Origin: a virus
Taxonomy: Duplodnaviria; Caudoviricetes
DNA length: 24,642 bases
Reading direction: 5' to 3' (one strand)
IMG/VR virus record: IMGVR_UViG_3300027533_000087
Location: 1-24,642 of that record
The position numbers and the translations under genes were made by a program. The notes under the pieces are model-generated. The model was not told the origin of the DNA. It saw only the letters and a program-made list of their open reading frames with translations, and made no database searches. This document shows positions 4,334 to 10,798 of this stretch, piece after piece; positions within the stretch are counted from its first letter, which is position 1; every line of letters begins with the position of its first letter.

Positions 4334-5764
4334 ATGCCAATAACCAACAAGTATAGACGCATACCCCTCGACCAGATCTTCGTCGAGAGGGACGAGCGTC
4401 AGAGAACAGAGATCGATACCACTGACATCGATGACAGCATCAGGAATCGAGGCGTCATCCAACCCATCTTGGTACAATGGGATGAGACGATTAACCTATA
4501 CAGGCTGATCGCCGGGGAGCGGCGTTTCACGTCGTCTAAGAAACTCAATATCCCTGACATCCCATCCAGGCTTGTTCATGAGGTCGATCCGATAGAATTG
4601 CAGATCCTCGAACTCGAAGAGAATGTCAAACGGAAAGACCTTGACTGGAAGGACGAGACTCGGGCAGTCAGGCGTATCCATATTCTGTACTGCGAACTGA
4701 ATACTACCTGGACTCAGGCTCAAACCGCTTCGTCTATCGGCATGAATCAGTCGATCGTGGCGATGATGATCAGGGTTGCTGAGGAGATCCTGGCAGGGAA
4801 CAAGCTCGTCTTGGAAGCCCAGGGCTACCGTCCAGCCTATAACATTATCTCCAGACATGAAGGTATCCAGATCGCTGACGCGATGAATGATCTATTGTCG
4901 GAGGGGCTTGATGTTGTCGCTGGTCACGGATATGCTATCGTCGGCGAGGGCGTGGTCGATTTGGAGGAGGTCAAATCTGCGAAGCCTGGTGGTATTATCA
5001 GGGTTCAGCATCCACAGCCGATACCCAATCCTATCAGTCCTGAGACGATCGTCCAGACTGACTTCGTAAAGTGGGCTGAGCAGTACAGAGGCAAGCCCTT
5101 CAGCTTCATCCACTGTGACTTCCCCTATGGCCTAAACCTTGACAAGAGTGAACAGGCTAACACCAAGACCTGGGGCGGATATGAGGATAGCGAAGCAACG
5201 TACTGGACTCTCTGTCGAGCCTTGTGCGATAATATCGATAGGGTAATGATGCAGTCTGGGCACTTGCTATTCTGGTGTTCGTCCGATTGCAGGATGATGA
5301 ACAAGACCCTTGACTTCTTTCAGTCTGCTGCTCCTTCCCTGGACTTTGTCCCTATCCCTATCATCTGGCACAAGACCGATGGCAAGGGCATCCTCTCTGA
5401 CCATAGGAGACGCGCCCGCCATGTCTACGAAACCGCCCTCATTGCGTCCAGGGGAGATCGACATATACTGCGAAGCGTCGGGGACGCCTATGGTGCTCCG
5501 ACATCTAAAGAGATCCACCAGTCGGAGAAGCCAGAACCCGTCCTGCGTCATTTCTTTGCTATGTTCGTGGACGAGAACACGCGAATGCTGGATCCTACGT
5601 GTGGTTCAGGCTCTTCAATCCGAGCGGCTGAGAGCCTCAGCGCTGCGTACACCTTCGGCCTCGAAATCAACGGGGACACAGTCGCCGCAGCCCGAACAGC
5701 CCTCAGACGCTCAAGGCTTCTACGAGGAGCCGAACGAAAATCCTCTGCTGCGGAGGGAATGTGA
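4334..5764 (+). CDS. ParB/Srx N-terminal domain + HTH fused to N6-adenine/N4-cytosine DNA methyltransferase (beta-class motif order)
   Basis: GVIQPILV and LIAGERRF (ParB signature), ELEENVKRKDL, HTH-like WTQAQTASSIGMNQSIVA; MTase motif IV DFPY, HQSEKP, motif I MLDPTCGSGS, GLEIN; GGAGG RBS. Confidence 0.88.
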   Translation: MPITNKYRRIPLDQIFVERDERQRTEIDTTDIDDSIRNRGVIQPILVQWDETINLYRLIAGERRFTSSKKLNIPDIPSRLVHEVDPIELQILELEENVKRKDLDWKDETRAVRRIHILYCELNTTWTQAQTASSIGMNQSIVAMMIRVAEEILAGNKLVLEAQGYRPAYNIISRHEGIQIADAMNDLLSEGLDVVAGHGYAIVGEGVVDLEEVKSAKPGGIIRVQHPQPIPNPISPETIVQTDFVKWAEQYRGKPFSFIHCDFPYGLNLDKSEQANTKTWGGYEDSEATYWTLCRALCDNIDRVMMQSGHLLFWCSSDCRMMNKTLDFFQSAAPSLDFVPIPIIWHKTDGKGILSDHRRRARHVYETALIASRGDRHILRSVGDAYGAPTSKEIHQSEKPEPVLRHFFAMFVDENTRMLDPTCGSGSSIRAAESLSAAYTFGLEINGDTVAAARTALRRSRLLRGAERKSSAAEGM

Positions 5765-6543
5765 TGACTGACGACACCACTGCGTTGCCCCCCATACCGG
5801 ATGACGACAGCGACTTCACGCCGGACTTGGCGCGAAATATCGTTGAAAAATATCAGGCATTTGTTTCCGAGCTTTTGGCGCGGATAGATCGCATCGAGAA
5901 GGCGGCCGAAAGATTGGTCCCCATCGAAGCTAGCGCTTACAGGGCGTTACCGAGCGATGAGATCGAGCGCCTCCGATCTGAATTGTTCTCGCTCTGCGAG
6001 GACACGGAGGAACGGTGCGCAAGCGTTGCCTCCAAGGACACAGAGGGAAAGCAGGGCGCATTCGCACGCGGGCGTATCTACGAAGCCAAGGGCATCCGCA
6101 ATGCAATGGGCGAAGTGTTCAGGCTCGCCCTCATAGACGTGGGTCAGCCGACGTTAGCGATGGTGGCCGAGATCGAGCGACTACGCGCTAACAGGGCGGG
6201 AGCAATGCCGAGCGAGGTGGAGATCGCTAAGGCCATCTGCAAATCAGCATCGTGTCAGGGGATCGACTGCTGCCAATGGCCATCACAGGGAGGCCGACTT
6301 AAGTGCGCCGTCGATCAGGGCGGGTATAAGGCCGCAGCACAAGCCGTACTCGCCATCCTCTCCCCGCAAGACGGCACCACCAAGCCGACGTTACCGATGG
6401 CGGGTGACGTAGTGCAGCGCCTGCGGAATCAAGAGTGCTCCGACACGCCCAGCCTGCGGCTAGAGGCGGCCGATGAGATCGAGCGGCTGCGCAATGATCT
6501 AGTTGCGCGCACAAACGTAATCAACAAACTGCGGGGCGAGTAG
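5764..6543 (+). CDS. Mosaic hypothetical protein with repeated EIERLR coiled-coil motifs (Ead/Ea22-like style)
   Basis: GGAGGG RBS, ATG overlapping upstream TGA (alternative GTG at 5761); three (D/A)EIERLR motifs; fills gap exactly up to the UDG start. Confidence 0.7.
   Translation: MTDDTTALPPIPDDDSDFTPDLARNIVEKYQAFVSELLARIDRIEKAAERLVPIEASAYRALPSDEIERLRSELFSLCEDTEERCASVASKDTEGKQGAFARGRIYEAKGIRNAMGEVFRLALIDVGQPTLAMVAEIERLRANRAGAMPSEVEIAKAICKSASCQGIDCCQWPSQGGRLKCAVDQGGYKAAAQAVLAILSPQDGTTKPTLPMAGDVVQRLRNQECSDTPSLRLEAADEIERLRNDLVARTNVINKLRGE
6146..6403 (+). repeat. 21-bp imperfect direct repeat inside the mosaic gene
   Basis: AGCCGACGTTAGCGATGGTGG (6146-6166) and AGCCGACGTTACCGATGGCGG (6383-6403), 19/21 identical. 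Confidence 0.7.
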
Positions 6544-7587
6544 GTGACTTTATATAATCCTTGCATCAAGGCCATAGGCCCGAAGAACGCCAAGGTAGTT
6601 TTCATCGGCGAGGCCCCTGGCGAACAGGAGGAGCTTACCGGTGTTCCTTTCATCGGAGCCAGTGGTCAGGAGTTGGACCGTCTATTCGATGAGGTCGGGC
6701 TGGACAGGTCACAGATATACCTCACCAATGTTCTGTTCACACGTCCGCCTAACAACAAGCTGGATTCGTTCTGCATTAAGAAAGAACAGTGTCCTTCTGG
6801 GTACACGCTGCCGCCTATATCCAACGGGAAGTATCTACACCCAGACCTTCTGCCAGAACTGCAGCGCCTTGCGGAGGAGCTTCGTGCTGTCAAGCCAAAC
6901 CTCATCATCGCCGGGGGCGGAGTCCCCGCCTGGGCTACCCTTGGTAATAGCAAGATCTCCGCTGTTCGAGGAACGATCACTGAAAGCCCTTATGGCAAGG
7001 TGCTGCCTACATACCATCCCGCGTACCTTTTCAGGGATTGGTCAGTCAGAACTATTATCAAGGCTGACCTACTCAAGGCTAAGGTTGAAATGGATTACCC
7101 TGAAATTAGACGCCCTGTTCGCGAGGTACTGGTCGACCCGACCTATGATGAAGTGATGGAGTTCCTGAATAAGTGTCTGTCAGCTTCTATGGTGACTGTA
7201 GACGTTGAGACACCTATCGGTACTATCACACATCTGGGCTTTGCGCCGTCAGTTGACCGTGCTATCATAATTCCCTTCTTCTCCAGGAGAACCACTAACG
7301 GTTCCTACTGGTCACAGGAGGACGAAGTACAAATCCGCTTGAAGATCGGGGAGGTCCTTTCTTCTAAGAGGGTTTGTAAGATCACTCAGAACGGCATGTT
7401 CGATATGCAGCACTTACTGAGAGAGGGCTATCGACTGTCCAACATGGGTGAGGATACAATGCTTCTCCAGCATGCGTTGTATCCAGAAATGCCGAAGTCG
7501 CTGGCGTTCCTTGGCTCTATCCACACCAATGAGACGGCGTGGAAAAAGCTGCGTCCACGTAGCAAGGTAATCAAACGAGAGGACTAA
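6544..7587 (+). CDS. Family 4-like uracil-DNA glycosylase fused to N-terminal part (ExoI+ExoII) of a DnaQ-like 3'-5' exonuclease; probable DNA polymerase subunit
   Basis: UDG motifs FIGEAPGEQE, PFIGASG, YLTNV, PTYHPAY; exonuclease motifs VDVETP (ExoI), TQNGMFD (ExoII), DTMLLQH...SLAFL; no ExoIII before the stop. Confidence 0.88.
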   Translation: MTLYNPCIKAIGPKNAKVVFIGEAPGEQEELTGVPFIGASGQELDRLFDEVGLDRSQIYLTNVLFTRPPNNKLDSFCIKKEQCPSGYTLPPISNGKYLHPDLLPELQRLAEELRAVKPNLIIAGGGVPAWATLGNSKISAVRGTITESPYGKVLPTYHPAYLFRDWSVRTIIKADLLKAKVEMDYPEIRRPVREVLVDPTYDEVMEFLNKCLSASMVTVDVETPIGTITHLGFAPSVDRAIIIPFFSRRTTNGSYWSQEDEVQIRLKIGEVLSSKRVCKITQNGMFDMQHLLREGYRLSNMGEDTMLLQHALYPEMPKSLAFLGSIHTNETAWKKLRPRSKVIKRED

Positions 7588-7588
7588 G

Positions 7589-8155
7589 ATGCGAAAGATC
7601 TTTAACAAGACTGAACCAGTACTGCAAGCGAAACCTGTCCAGGAAAGGAAACCTCGCATGCCCGCAGTAAAGGTGATAGTGGAATCCCCCTTCGGGTCTG
7701 ACGATATTGAGATCCGTAAGGCCAATGTCTCGTATGTGAGGGACGCCTGCCGGGACTGTGTGAGAAGGGGCGAGAACCCCTTTGCATCACACCTGTTCTA
7801 CACGCAGTTCATGGATGATGCTGACCCCGCTGATAGATCGTTAGGGATTCAGCTCGGCTATGACCGCTGGACCGACGCAGACTCTATCGTGTTCTATCTG
7901 GACCTCGGCATGAGCCCCGGAATGCAGAAGGCCCTGTGCCATGCCTTCGCCCTCGGCATTCACATAGAACGCCGTTGGCTAGGTCGCAATCTGGTGGCTC
8001 GCCCTGTTGAGAATGGCCGCTCGATTGAGGAAATCATGAATGACTTTGCTAAGGAGCTTGCCCCTGATGCCGTGGATCAAGACGCACGAACTGACAGAAC
8101 AGAAGATCGCGTCCCTGAGGGAGTCGGATCGGGAGTCGATATACAACGGCCTTGA
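7589..8155 (+). CDS. Nucleoside 2-deoxyribosyltransferase-like (DUF4406/DUF7768-like) protein
   Basis: VIVESPF, RGENPFASHLFYTQF.DD, GI..G, D.IVFYLDLGMSPGM pattern typical of this Rossmann-like phage family; family label is from recall. Confidence 0.7.
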   Translation: MRKIFNKTEPVLQAKPVQERKPRMPAVKVIVESPFGSDDIEIRKANVSYVRDACRDCVRRGENPFASHLFYTQFMDDADPADRSLGIQLGYDRWTDADSIVFYLDLGMSPGMQKALCHAFALGIHIERRWLGRNLVARPVENGRSIEEIMNDFAKELAPDAVDQDARTDRTEDRVPEGVGSGVDIQRP

Positions 8156-9593
8156 TTGTTGCATCACTTTCGAGGTCTTTGAGAAAGTCAAAGAGGAACT
8201 CGTCAAGCAGAACGATCCCTCTGCCAGACTTATATACGATTTCGAAAGGGGCATGTGTGGCCCCGCACTGGACATGATGCAGAGGGGTTTCAAAATCGAC
8301 ACCTATCAGCGTAATGTCCAGATCTCCCGACTAGAGAAAGAAGTCGTCAAGGTAGAAGGTATACTGAATCAGTATGGAATGGCTACCTGGGAGAAGCCGA
8401 TCAAGGCTAGAAGCCCGTTCCTGAAAGAGCTGTTCTATACCTTCTATAATCTGCCTGAGCAATTCAGATTTGATAAGGGTGAGAGAAAGGTCACAGTCAA
8501 CAGGGAGGCACTGGAAAAGCTCAGTGCTTATCATCATGTACTTCCCATCATCAATGCGATACTCACTGTACGAGATACGGCAAAGCTCCTTTCTACAATC
8601 AGGACAGAAATTGACCCTGACGGTCGTATGCGTACCAGTTACAATGTGGCTGGAACTGAAACGGGACGCTGGTCATCGTCGTCGTCTGTCTTTGGCTCAG
8701 GCACTAATCTACAAAACATCACTAACGAAGTTCGACGAATGTTCATTGCAGATGAAGGTAAAGTCCTCTGCAACATCGACGAAGAACAAGCAGAGTCCAG
8801 GGTGATGGGACTACTGATGTGGTCACTGATAGGTGATCCATCTTACCTGCTTGCCAATGAGTCCGGCGATGTCCATACTGCTGTCGCCAGGCTCTGCTGG
8901 CCACACCTTCCTTGGAACGGGGAGATTCTTCATGACAGGGAAGTCGCGGAACGCCCATTCTATCGCCATTTCTCATACAGAGACATGTCCAAGCGGGGCG
9001 GCCATCTCACTAATTATTATGGCACGCCGCCAACGATGGCTCGTAATCTCAAGATTGAGGAGAAAGTCGCCGCGGAGTTTCAACTTGCTTATTTCAAGGC
9101 TTTTCCGGGGCTTCGAGAATATCACCACTGGGTTGCGAGGGAGATCGGGCTTCATCAGGAACTCACTACTCCGCTGGGACGACGCCGGATTTTCTTTGGT
9201 CGTCCAGGTGACGATGCTACCCTCCGTGAAGCTATCGCCTACATTCCGCAAAGCACTGTTGGAGATATTCTTAACTGTGCTTTGTGGCGTATTTGGAGAT
9301 ATTGCCCGGAAGCGCAGTTACTCGCGCAGGTACATGACTCAATATGCTTTCAGTCTGACGAATCAGATCTACCAAGGGCCATCGCAAATGCTCGAAGACT
9401 TGCTACCTTCCCCTTGCGTATGAATGGGAAGGCACTAGTTATTCCAGTCGATGCCAAAGTGGGCTGGAACTGGGCGGACGAGACGATCAAAACTTCTAGA
9501 GGCAAAGTGCACAACCCTAACGGGTTATCGAAATGGAAAGGATCACTGGCAGGACGTAAACGTCTGTCAGGTGTCCATAGCATGGTGGCATAG
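8067..9593 (+). CDS. polA: Family A DNA polymerase (ExoIII helix + polymerase domain); start reassigned to ATG 8067
   Basis: AAGGAG at 8051-8056 before ATG 8067; YNGLD (ExoIII), GTETGRWSS, NLQNI, motif A DEEQAESR, motif B RDMSKRGGHLTNYYG, PQSTVGD, motif C QVHDSI. Confidence 0.95.
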   Translation: MPWIKTHELTEQKIASLRESDRESIYNGLDCCITFEVFEKVKEELVKQNDPSARLIYDFERGMCGPALDMMQRGFKIDTYQRNVQISRLEKEVVKVEGILNQYGMATWEKPIKARSPFLKELFYTFYNLPEQFRFDKGERKVTVNREALEKLSAYHHVLPIINAILTVRDTAKLLSTIRTEIDPDGRMRTSYNVAGTETGRWSSSSSVFGSGTNLQNITNEVRRMFIADEGKVLCNIDEEQAESRVMGLLMWSLIGDPSYLLANESGDVHTAVARLCWPHLPWNGEILHDREVAERPFYRHFSYRDMSKRGGHLTNYYGTPPTMARNLKIEEKVAAEFQLAYFKAFPGLREYHHWVAREIGLHQELTTPLGRRRIFFGRPGDDATLREAIAYIPQSTVGDILNCALWRIWRYCPEAQLLAQVHDSICFQSDESDLPRAIANARRLATFPLRMNGKALVIPVDAKVGWNWADETIKTSRGKVHNPNGLSKWKGSLAGRKRLSGVHSMVA

Positions 9594-10798
9594 TGTCGGG
9601 GCAGGATGAGGATTGGCTCAATGGCTTCCTAGATCACACGTCAGGCATACCCAGTCCAGAAGTCTTTCGCTTATGGTCTGGTATTGCCACGATTGCAGGG
9701 GCCTTGGAGAGAAGAGTCTGGGTTCGGCTGGCTGGGAAACCTGTGTTCCCCAACATGTATGCTCTGTTGGTAGGTATCCCAGCCACCGGCAAGTCCCAGG
9801 CGATTGAACACACAACAGAGTTGTGGCACGGAATATCTGAACTCCACATGGCGCCTCATGATGTCACGAAAGCGTCTCTCGTCGACAGCCTTGATAAAGC
9901 AGCAAGAAAAATGGTCTTGCAGACTGGTAATGGGGGCACTACTCTACTTGAGTACAATAGTCTCCTGGTGCCTGCTGACGAGTTTGGGGTACTAATGCCC
10001 AGTCATGACCTAGAGTTCCTGTCTACCCTTAACAGGATCTATGACAATCCACCTGCGCATAGACAGGAGCGACGCTCTTTGAAGAAGCCTATCGACATCA
10101 TCAATCCTCAGCTCAATATCATAGCTGGGGTACAGCCTGCTTACTTGGCTAATCTCTTGCCCGAAGAAGCCTGGGCAATGGGGTTCATGAGTCGCGTGAT
10201 TATGATCTACTCAAGAGATAAACAGAAAGTCCAACTCTTTAAGCCTAACGGAAAGCCCTACGAAGTGAACCAGAATCTACTTCGTAGGTTGCGCGACATG
10301 ACCAAGATGTATGGGGAGGTGACTTTCGATGCAGCAGCCACCGCTGAATTTGAACGCTGGTATGACAAAGGCTGCGATCCGATCCCGGAGCATTCTCGCC
10401 TCGAACACTATAATGGCAGAAGGCTGCTCCACGTCGCTAAGCTTTCTCTGGTGGCAGCTGTATCGGCCGGACGTAAGTTTATCTCGTTACAAGACTTCGG
10501 TCGCGCTAGGGATTGGATGCTCGATGCTGAGGTACGAATGCCAGACGTCTTTAGAGAGATGACTCAACACTCCGATATCCAGCTCATCCAAGAACTACAC
10601 TTCTTCGCATGGCAACAGTGGATCAAAGATAGGAGACCCCTCCATGAATCAAGACTCATCAACTTTCTTGCAGCACGTGCCCCGTCGGAGAGGATCCCGC
10701 GAATCCTTGACATTGCCGTTAGGGCTAACATCTTCGACAGGGACGCCGGGTCGGGCTCTTTCCGCCCTCGCCCTAAAAATGAGCATGGCCTGGAGTAA
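9593..10798 (+). CDS. Putative replicative helicase (DUF3987-like P-loop NTPase with C-terminal winged-helix-like region)
   Basis: GTG start overlapping pol stop; PNMYALLVGIPATGKSQA (Walker A), ADEFG (Walker B), GFMSRVI (arginine finger-like). Confidence 0.78.
   Translation: MSGQDEDWLNGFLDHTSGIPSPEVFRLWSGIATIAGALERRVWVRLAGKPVFPNMYALLVGIPATGKSQAIEHTTELWHGISELHMAPHDVTKASLVDSLDKAARKMVLQTGNGGTTLLEYNSLLVPADEFGVLMPSHDLEFLSTLNRIYDNPPAHRQERRSLKKPIDIINPQLNIIAGVQPAYLANLLPEEAWAMGFMSRVIMIYSRDKQKVQLFKPNGKPYEVNQNLLRRLRDMTKMYGEVTFDAAATAEFERWYDKGCDPIPEHSRLEHYNGRRLLHVAKLSLVAAVSAGRKFISLQDFGRARDWMLDAEVRMPDVFREMTQHSDIQLIQELHFFAWQQWIKDRRPLHESRLINFLAARAPSERIPRILDIAVRANIFDRDAGSGSFRPRPKNEHGLE

Follow-up and report, generated by a model that had tools for sequence, protein, structure and literature searches.

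A phage family A DNA polymerase with a uracil-DNA glycosylase, divided between two genes inside its proofreading exonuclease

Introduction

Family A DNA polymerases (PolA) that carry a uracil-DNA glycosylase (UDG) in the same chain have been described in SPO1-like, N4-like (cluster 17) and SP15-like phages (PMC10201439; bioRxiv 10.1101/2025.03.26.645540). In phiLo and YerA41, the fused UDG excises template uracil ahead of the polymerase site (bioRxiv 10.1101/2025.03.26.645540). The window analyzed here, the whole 24,642-nucleotide stretch of the IMG/VR virus record IMGVR_UViG_3300027533_000087 (Duplodnaviria; Caudoviricetes), presents the same order of UDG, exonuclease and polymerase, but distributed over two chains. 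The first gene (subunit A, 6544..7587) stops between the exonuclease motifs ExoII and ExoIII, and the second (subunit B, 8067..9593) carries ExoIII and the polymerase. Our analysis indicates that this split is real, old and widespread, and that it is likely functional.

Among the single-chain proteins, PDB entry 9qhs (SP15-like UDG-PolA: phiLo, YerA41) matched subunit A by profile and by fold, and the Glu-x-Pro and the His named as catalytic in phiLo are present in the UDG of the window (bioRxiv 10.1101/2025.03.26.645540). Apart from being two chains, the proteins of the window differ from single-chain UDG-PolAs in a His at position B3 of polymerase motif B. In addition, 9qhs has 1,142 residues compared to a total of 855 here, a difference in length from which the window pair probably lacks the large SP15-type inserts. 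The main text of the preprint never uses the word "split" (bioRxiv 10.1101/2025.03.26.645540).

Split polymerases are also known. The T7-like PolA of the S-SBP1-like (clade B) cyanophages, called the first in the family, was divided by gene fission into two genes whose products are predicted to reassemble (PMC10201439; PMC12695635), which is the likeness with the present case. However, in S-TIP37 (MH540083) the cut lies at a domain border, the genes overlap, and each chain holds a whole active site because the exonuclease gene retains ExoIII. In contrast, the split of the window goes through the exonuclease site, involves a UDG domain and, among relatives, leaves up to 3.4 kb of other genes in between. 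The S-SBP1-like features (a break after the complete exonuclease, a T7-like sequence with Tyr at B3, and no UDG) were not found in the window polymerase. In CCPol-MP of staphylococcal mobile elements, CCPol has kept three helices of the exonuclease, and its predicted binding partner is unrelated (PMC10201439). Here too the polymerase retains the last exonuclease helices, and the surface left there would be completed by another protein, but MP is an unrelated beta-barrel with no exonuclease half found nearby, whereas in the window it is the absent half of the exonuclease that would act as partner. The split family B polymerase of phiKZ, which forms a stable 1:1 complex (PMC13648687), and the Mpox polymerase, to which a UDG is supplied in trans as a separate chain (cited in bioRxiv 10.1101/2025.03.26.645540), belong to family B and to unrelated lineages, and serve as analogies only. 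A split described in an OM43 phage (PMC10580990) was considered as a case of the same thing and rejected, since it lies inside the polymerase domain.

Both the fused UDG-PolA and the split PolA were known already, and the cut described here is a variant of both. Our literature search found no paper on a cut between ExoII and ExoIII, although the supplements of PMC10201439 and of the preprint, or subscription papers, could hold a mention. The interest of the present case lies in one catalytic site that is shared between two genes throughout a broad and old phage group, unlike the situation in S-TIP37.

Results and discussion

Organization of the two genes

Subunit A (347 amino acids, plus strand) starts with a GTG directly 3' of the preceding stop and ends with TAA at 7585-7587. 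It comprises a family-4 UDG (about residues 1-189; Pfam UDG, E 6.6e-27, residues 12-168) and the N-terminal part of a 3'-5' exonuclease (Pfam DNA_pol_A_exo1, residues 201-323, with an E-value of 1e-4, a match that falls slightly short of the curated cut-off), and it finishes just before the position of the ExoIII helix. ExoI is D220-V-E222 (DVE, 7201..7209) and ExoII extends from Q282 to D287 (QNGMFD, 7387..7404); the D and E of ExoI and D287 of ExoII were present in 185/185 split sequences. Subunit B (508 amino acids, plus strand) lies in a frame that is open from 8040. Its ATG at 8067 matches the conserved MPxIxT start of the relatives, and TAAGGAG (8050..8056), which resembles a ribosome-binding site, is placed 10 nt before it. 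A leader of about 25 residues is followed by the ExoIII helix, starting with Y26-N-G-L-D30 (YNGLD, 8142..8156), and then by the family A polymerase itself, with thumb, palm and fingers (Pfam DNA_pol_A, E 1.4e-33). A sequence-only reading of the window had described a complete UDG with ExoI and ExoII in the first gene, and in the second ExoIII with its own ribosome-binding site and ATG and an intact polymerase domain, and its positions were confirmed. The two proteins matched consecutive stretches of a single PHROG polymerase profile (phrog_17, 473-788 for subunit A and 809-1234 for subunit B).

The family A catalytic set is present in subunit B (D238, R305, K309, Y317, H423 and D424). Motif A spans D238 to E243 (8778..8795; D238 in 171/171 sequences), motif B is R305-K309-H313-Y317 (8979..9017) and motif C is H423-D424 (9333..9338; D424 in 170/171). 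The model of subunit B has a Klenow-type fold (Z 30.6, root-mean-square deviation 3.0, 400 aligned residues against 1kln). H313 occupies the variable B3 position of motif B, where it was found in 171/171 split and in 125/136 fused relatives. The B3 residues named in the part of the 2023 classification that was available are only Phe, Tyr or Leu (PMC10201439), and our search for literature on histidine at position 762/B3 found nothing relevant. The His is a trait of the clade and no bar to membership in family A; an invariant His at a position that selects nucleotides is a second, separate question for enzymologists.

In DnaQ-like (DEDDy) exonucleases, ExoI provides D-x-E, ExoII a D and ExoIII Y-x3-D, and proofreading by the Klenow fragment requires the aspartate of ExoIII, which binds metal. 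All these residues are present here, spread over the two genes; neither chain holds the three motifs, the stop of subunit A falling between ExoII and ExoIII. Given this role of the ExoIII aspartate, a site would be expected only when both chains are together. The reading that we favor, to which we give a probability of roughly 0.8, is that an ancestral UDG-exonuclease-polymerase gene was cut in two at the loop preceding the ExoIII helix, and that the two proteins come together again in a stable complex, where they share a single proofreading site. The first helix of the polymerase would complete the site of the UDG-exonuclease protein: the ExoIII helix (Y26 and D30, with a face formed by N27/G28/C31/F35/E39) would pack on the sheet of subunit A (T229/G232, V237, I242, I280), and two catalytic metals would be bound by D220, E222 and D287 of subunit A plus D30 of subunit B. 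By analogy with phiLo and YerA41, the UDG domain could be located at the template entry, excising uracil ahead of the fork. After the cut, the gap would have become an ordinary slot for gene traffic.

Distribution of the split

The best 120 relatives of subunit A among proteins of 190-608 residues, a size range that could not show fused forms, were 329-392 amino acids long and 46-80% identical (self excluded), and close relatives at 78-80% identity likewise end at 347 amino acids. Among longer proteins there were 385 matches, of which the top 120 were UDG-PolA fusions with 31-42% identity to subunit A. When a profile of subunit A was compared with viral contigs, 347 matches were confirmed and 80 loci returned; subunit A was a separate open reading frame (ORF) in 80/80, with a start of subunit B downstream in 73. 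With a profile of subunit B, 445 metagenome and 263 viral matches were confirmed and 80 loci were returned from each. Among the 159 non-self loci, 122 had subunit A ending upstream, 28 had an in-frame stop upstream with subunit A off the contig, and 9 were undecidable; subunit A was upstream of subunit B in 122/122 loci long enough to show it. Many loci recur between both collections. The sequence-only reading had proposed to look at whether the break point is conserved in relatives, and it is: none of the 80 loci of the first profile and none of the 159 of the second was fused. A locus search with the single polymerase sequence gave only distant relatives, of which 13/15 were fused and 2/15 were cut by contig ends. 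The nearer fused relatives are those of Microcystis phage Mel-JY34 and MW202489, with a similar gene order. The window's own record (our loci L127 and L282) and the frameshifted L111 were left out of counts and trees.

The same split is found in a cultured phage, Caulobacter phage Kuura, whose halves Kuura_029 and Kuura_026 have two small genes between them. Kuura is a plaque-forming podovirus, and its paper, as far as available, names only "a DNA polymerase"; one "glycosylase" entry of the supplement is in the row of another phage (PMC9959647). The split explains why annotation misses the system: the first half is annotated as hypothetical in Kuura, and the database's gene call for the window polymerase (P0121, 446 amino acids) begins downstream of ExoIII and loses this motif. 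A cultured member also makes the split testable, since proofreading can be probed by omitting one gene product instead of mutating the site.

Some loci of these collections presented other alterations. L111, of the split type, lies on an Actinomycetota contig of 4.7 Mb and has several frameshifts, which would point to a decayed prophage or to read errors. In Vibrio phage VS-ABTNL-3 (L019:4974-8108), the UDG-PolA is broken elsewhere, inside the polymerase domain, by a 184-residue ORF with no Pfam match, possibly an intron. L005 has a fused UDG-PolA with frameshifts in the polymerase part.

Age and origin

In the tree of the polymerase part (134 rows), the main split forms make one clade of 45 rows with a Shimodaira-Hasegawa-like approximate likelihood ratio (SH-aLRT) support of 100, and in that of the UDG-exonuclease part (143 rows) one clade of 48 rows with a support of 97; in both cases the clade is inside the fused forms. 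The trees were quick searches with SH-aLRT only, and the outgroup rows (L116 and L118) are long branches that leave the root soft. Because the split clade is nested inside fused forms in both trees, fission of a fused ancestor is the simplest reading of these alignments. A recent one-off disruption, named beforehand as a finding that would speak against the system, is not what we observed, since there is one old clade in both trees.

One alternative is that the gene has decayed or that the contig was misassembled, and the start of P0121 downstream of ExoIII shows that automatic annotation is inconsistent here. Nevertheless, the same break is present in well over a hundred loci, some of them recurring across collections, and in a cultured phage, the relatives at 78-80% identity stop at the same length, and the genes are under purifying selection. 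The median ratio of non-synonymous to synonymous substitution rates was 0.10 for subunit A and 0.06 for subunit B in 9 non-overlapping pairs (from 63 usable among 64 loci), an estimate weakened by near-duplicates among the pairs and by two pairs with identical values. Intein-bearing polymerases were excluded from this estimate and from the polymerase trees, except any in two second-lineage rows added for the likelihood test given below. The relatives with the same break rule out decay or an assembly error, to which we leave practically no chance. The split is not recent. Nor is it decay, as the sequence-only reading had argued from intact residues and clean starts and stops; the purifying selection and the invariant catalytic residues bear this out.

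There is apparently a second origin. One locus (L109:4947-7887) falls outside the main split clade, beside the fused protein P0295, and seven more loci of its lineage (L119-L125) presented, in 7/7 cases, a separate ORF starting just before ExoIII. Since a tree constrained to keep the two split lineages as one group has a likelihood lower by 98 (approximately unbiased test, p-AU 4.8e-6; quick tree of 34 rows, in which the group "all split forms" was named after the first tree had been seen), the same loop was likely cut twice independently. The second lineage was excluded from the main motif and covariation sets; the gap of L109 contains two small ORFs. With one site spread over two genes in a broad and old group, and the same cut arising twice, this loop stands out as a place where the PolA exonuclease tolerates being split, which could be exploited in proofreading enzymes made conditional or built from two parts.

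The break point and the gap

Between a motif ending in Trp/Tyr-Lys and the ExoIII helix, the fused relatives have a short linker whose length varies. The split forms of subunit A extend 12-19 residues beyond this motif, and in the window the protein ends with a tail of the type K-[RK]-[DE]-[DE] (7573..7584), with K344 in 171/185 sequences and D or E as the last residue in 111/120. On the other side, the Met start of subunit B lies 19-25 residues before the ExoIII tyrosine in 101/119 database proteins, and T6 is kept in 146/171, so both new ends are conserved. The tail of subunit A in the second lineage resembles the linker of the fused P0295 as far as the positions directly in front of the ExoIII helix. 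This likeness suggests that the acidic tail is the ancestral linker, and the tail of the window likely represents the linker residues preceding the ExoIII helix.

The distance from the stop of subunit A to the ExoIII tyrosine ranged from 53 to 2,862 nt, with a median of 586 in 56 distinct loci, and reached 3,380 nt in a later set. In three loci the genes are adjacent, with the start of subunit B overlapping or close behind the stop of subunit A. The gap contains genes unrelated to one another: a small membrane-protein-like family in 31 loci, DUF7768 in 15, and others recognized by eye, which we take to be MazG-like, HNH-like, HD-like and further ORFs. In two loci there are tRNA genes between the polymerase genes (L041:3045-4216 and L079:6860-7019). 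In the window, the 479 nt between both subunits hold a DUF7768 (nucleoside 2-deoxyribosyltransferase-like) gene on the plus strand, from 7589 or 7658 to 8155, whose domain is at about 7670-7972 (E 6e-24) and which runs at its 3' end over the initial 89 nt of subunit B in another frame. This gene, absent from the sequence-only reading, is a passenger in a variable slot.

Introns and inteins are frequent in phage polymerase genes, and one chain could be restored from the two genes by an intron, ribosomal bypass, a frameshift or a split intein. HNH-like ORFs in some gaps, and the several relatives with inserts of about 290 residues elsewhere in the polymerase, would agree with this. However, gap lengths vary, all three frame offsets were observed (12/27/17 of 56 distinct loci), and the DNA 3' of the stop of subunit A and 5' of the start of subunit B is at chance identity (median 0.25 versus 0.65 for coding DNA). 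The Rfam scan of 13 sources, mostly picked for long gaps, gave tRNAs only and no intron, with nothing in the window, and Pfam found no intein domain in either ORF. Neither a group I/II intron RNA nor a fixed frame junction nor intein ends were found at the break, although a very divergent intron could escape Rfam. Unrelated gap genes, the conserved Met start of subunit B and the acidic end of subunit A also argue against a restored chain, which we regard as very improbable; splicing in particular is unlikely on this evidence. The spliced or fused product against which the sequence-only reading had cautioned is thus made improbable by the Rfam result, the gap lengths, the frame offsets and the DNA identity at the ends. 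As a separate observation, the inserts of about 290 residues occur at two palm/fingers sites of the polymerase (L042, L079, L094, L096, L100, L103 and L123) and are probably inteins.

Probable contact between the two subunits

When each subunit was folded alone, the mean predicted local distance difference test score (pLDDT) was 87.7 for subunit A and 88.4 for subunit B, with cores mostly above 85. The score dropped from 80 to 44 over residues 301-347 of subunit A, and was 61-80 over residues 1-40 of subunit B, falling below 50 at 30-32, where the ExoIII helix is broken. Low confidence at the cut ends is by itself weak evidence for pairing in these models.

Stronger indications came from covariation between the genes. 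Mean-field direct coupling analysis (DCA) was carried out with residues 191-337 of subunit A and 20-79 of subunit B in 227 split pairs (effective number 119), 30 of which were inferred from contigs having the same length. The top inter-gene pairs were G232-C31 (z 14.1), I280-F35 (9.0), V237-E39 (8.9) and T229-N27 (6.4), while eight near-neighbor re-pairings used as a control reached maximum z values of 4.1-5.1. G232-C31 remained first when the 30 inferred pairs were dropped or the weighting was made stricter. Averaged over the ten best pairs of 137 fused proteins, headed by I242-G28, z was 3.9 among the split forms compared to 0.8 +/- 0.25 in the controls. In a polymerase-core tree of 120 rows, Ser232 appears in 9 separate clades, accompanied by Ser/Thr31 in 15/15 cases, and the sister-pair contrasts for four pairs were 4:0, 8:1, 6:1 and 3:0. 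The residues involved in subunit B (27/28, 31, 35, 39) have helix spacing, and those of subunit A are on or beside the predicted strands 230-234, 239-244 and 278-281. This pattern is as expected of a helix lying on the exonuclease sheet, and it supports, at the level of sequence, a contact between the subunits.

Several points must be held against this evidence. Covariance with average-product correction over all columns hardly distinguished true from re-paired sets (1.19/0.99, 0.83/0.66 and 1.18/1.11), and its top pairs looked phylogenetic. The DCA was run after this first score, with chosen windows, low depth and eight control runs. Furthermore, what the covariation supports is contact and not catalysis.

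The halves could also act apart, subunit A as a stand-alone uracil-repair protein or a nuclease whose acidic tail possibly replaces ExoIII, and subunit B as a polymerase that does not proofread. In agreement with this, the acidic tail shows higher conservation than fused proteins do at the corresponding positions, subunit B alone models as a well-formed polymerase core, and CCPol is a published PolA without most of the exonuclease domain (PMC10201439). But Y26 and D30 are kept in 168/171 sequences of subunit B (the remaining three are gapped there), for which there would be no reason without a partner; the inter-gene covariation falls on one helix face, and the order of the two genes is constant in all loci long enough to show it. 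We consider separate action of the halves improbable.

The sequence-only reading had proposed a two-subunit replicase with an exonuclease site formed on docking, and a fidelity that could depend on the ratio of the subunits. The true two-gene split stands, and the interface is supported by the covariation; the data gave no support to docking as a switch or to fidelity being set by subunit ratio. A reversible association, with ratio or timing turning proofreading and uracil scanning on and off, would be favored by the separate start signals, by gaps of up to 3.4 kb that leave room for separate control, and by a break that arose twice at the same loop with both new ends conserved. On the other hand, the genes are in one tight run with stops and starts abutting or overlapping, and neither promoter-like sites (6 versus 3.4 +/- 1.8 in shuffles) nor terminator-like sites (3 versus 3.5 +/- 1.9) were clearly above chance. 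In addition, both ends model poorly alone. Because the ExoIII helix belongs to the core of the exonuclease fold, a permanent pair is the most likely arrangement, and a regulated switch seems unlikely. A more speculative idea, which we hold as doubtful though somewhat less so than the switch, is that the loop before ExoIII is a recurrent break point, at which phage UDG-polymerases have at least twice come to assemble their proofreading site from the products of two genes, and the UDG-exonuclease a detachable editing module, whose supply would set the mutation rate and uracil handling during infection. If this were true, phages could exchange the module, and engineered polymerases could be fitted with it.

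The glycosylase domain

The UDG domain of subunit A showed a close fold match to family-4 UDG (Z 22.2, root-mean-square deviation 1.7, 164 aligned residues), and E23, P25, E29, F36, N62 and H158 align with those of Thermus 1ui0. Motif A, from G22-E23-A24-P25-G26 to F36 (6607..6651, plus strand), follows the family-4 pattern GE[AG]PG and was assigned by conservation and by alignment to Thermus and Thermotoga family-4 UDG, and motif B is H158-P159 (7015-7020, plus strand). Among 185 split sequences, E23 was kept in 178, E29 in 182, F36 in 172, N62 in 178 and H158 in 181.

Family-4 UDGs have four cysteines as ligands of a 4Fe-4S cluster. None of them was found in the UDG of subunit A: the Cys of KCRPP is Thr66, a column where Cys is not among the four commonest residues of the 185 split sequences, and the model begins at residue 15 of the Thermus chain, beyond the N-terminal Cys pair. 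Position 25 changes from Pro to Trp in 42/185 split relatives, and both Kuura and the second split lineage have a degenerate motif A. Since the cluster cysteines are lacking and P25 is so often Trp, uracil excision, predicted only, is less certain than proofreading, and this part of the proposed mechanism is weakened. That all catalytic residues are intact, as the sequence-only reading had it, is correct for this phage but does not extend to the family-4 cysteines or to the motif A of some relatives. It could be mentioned that Trp25 may alter or block the uracil pocket.

Gene neighborhood

The window is a phage fragment of 24.6 kb with a completeness rating of 54%. One Logan contig covers the entire stretch with 0 indels or joints, and may be the window's own source; other public runs matched it in short pieces only, with no joint, and no RNA run was among those listed as containing it. 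The 14 loci from genome bins had mixed labels and were mostly on phage-sized contigs, and for this reason no host was inferred.

The polymerase genes belong to a plus-strand replication block that includes a PD-(D/E)XK nuclease, a Sak4-like ATPase, a ParB-methylase and a DUF3987/primase-annotated gene. The latter (9593..10798, plus strand) has a start that overlaps the polymerase stop and occupies the same position in fused relatives. A minus-strand virion block, which holds an SU10-type major capsid protein, faces the replication block.

Upstream of the polymerase genes there is a ParB-N domain fused to an N6/N4 DNA methylase (4334-5764), and methylase or ParB-like genes were observed at the matching place in Mel-JY34, MW202489, VS-ABTNL-3 and a Desulfofustis phage. 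It is followed by a 260-residue ORF (5761-6543) with no PHROG match and only one sub-threshold match in Pfam. Several unrelated contigs, one of 69 kb at both of its ends, have matches to the DNA around 6462-6494 inside this ORF.

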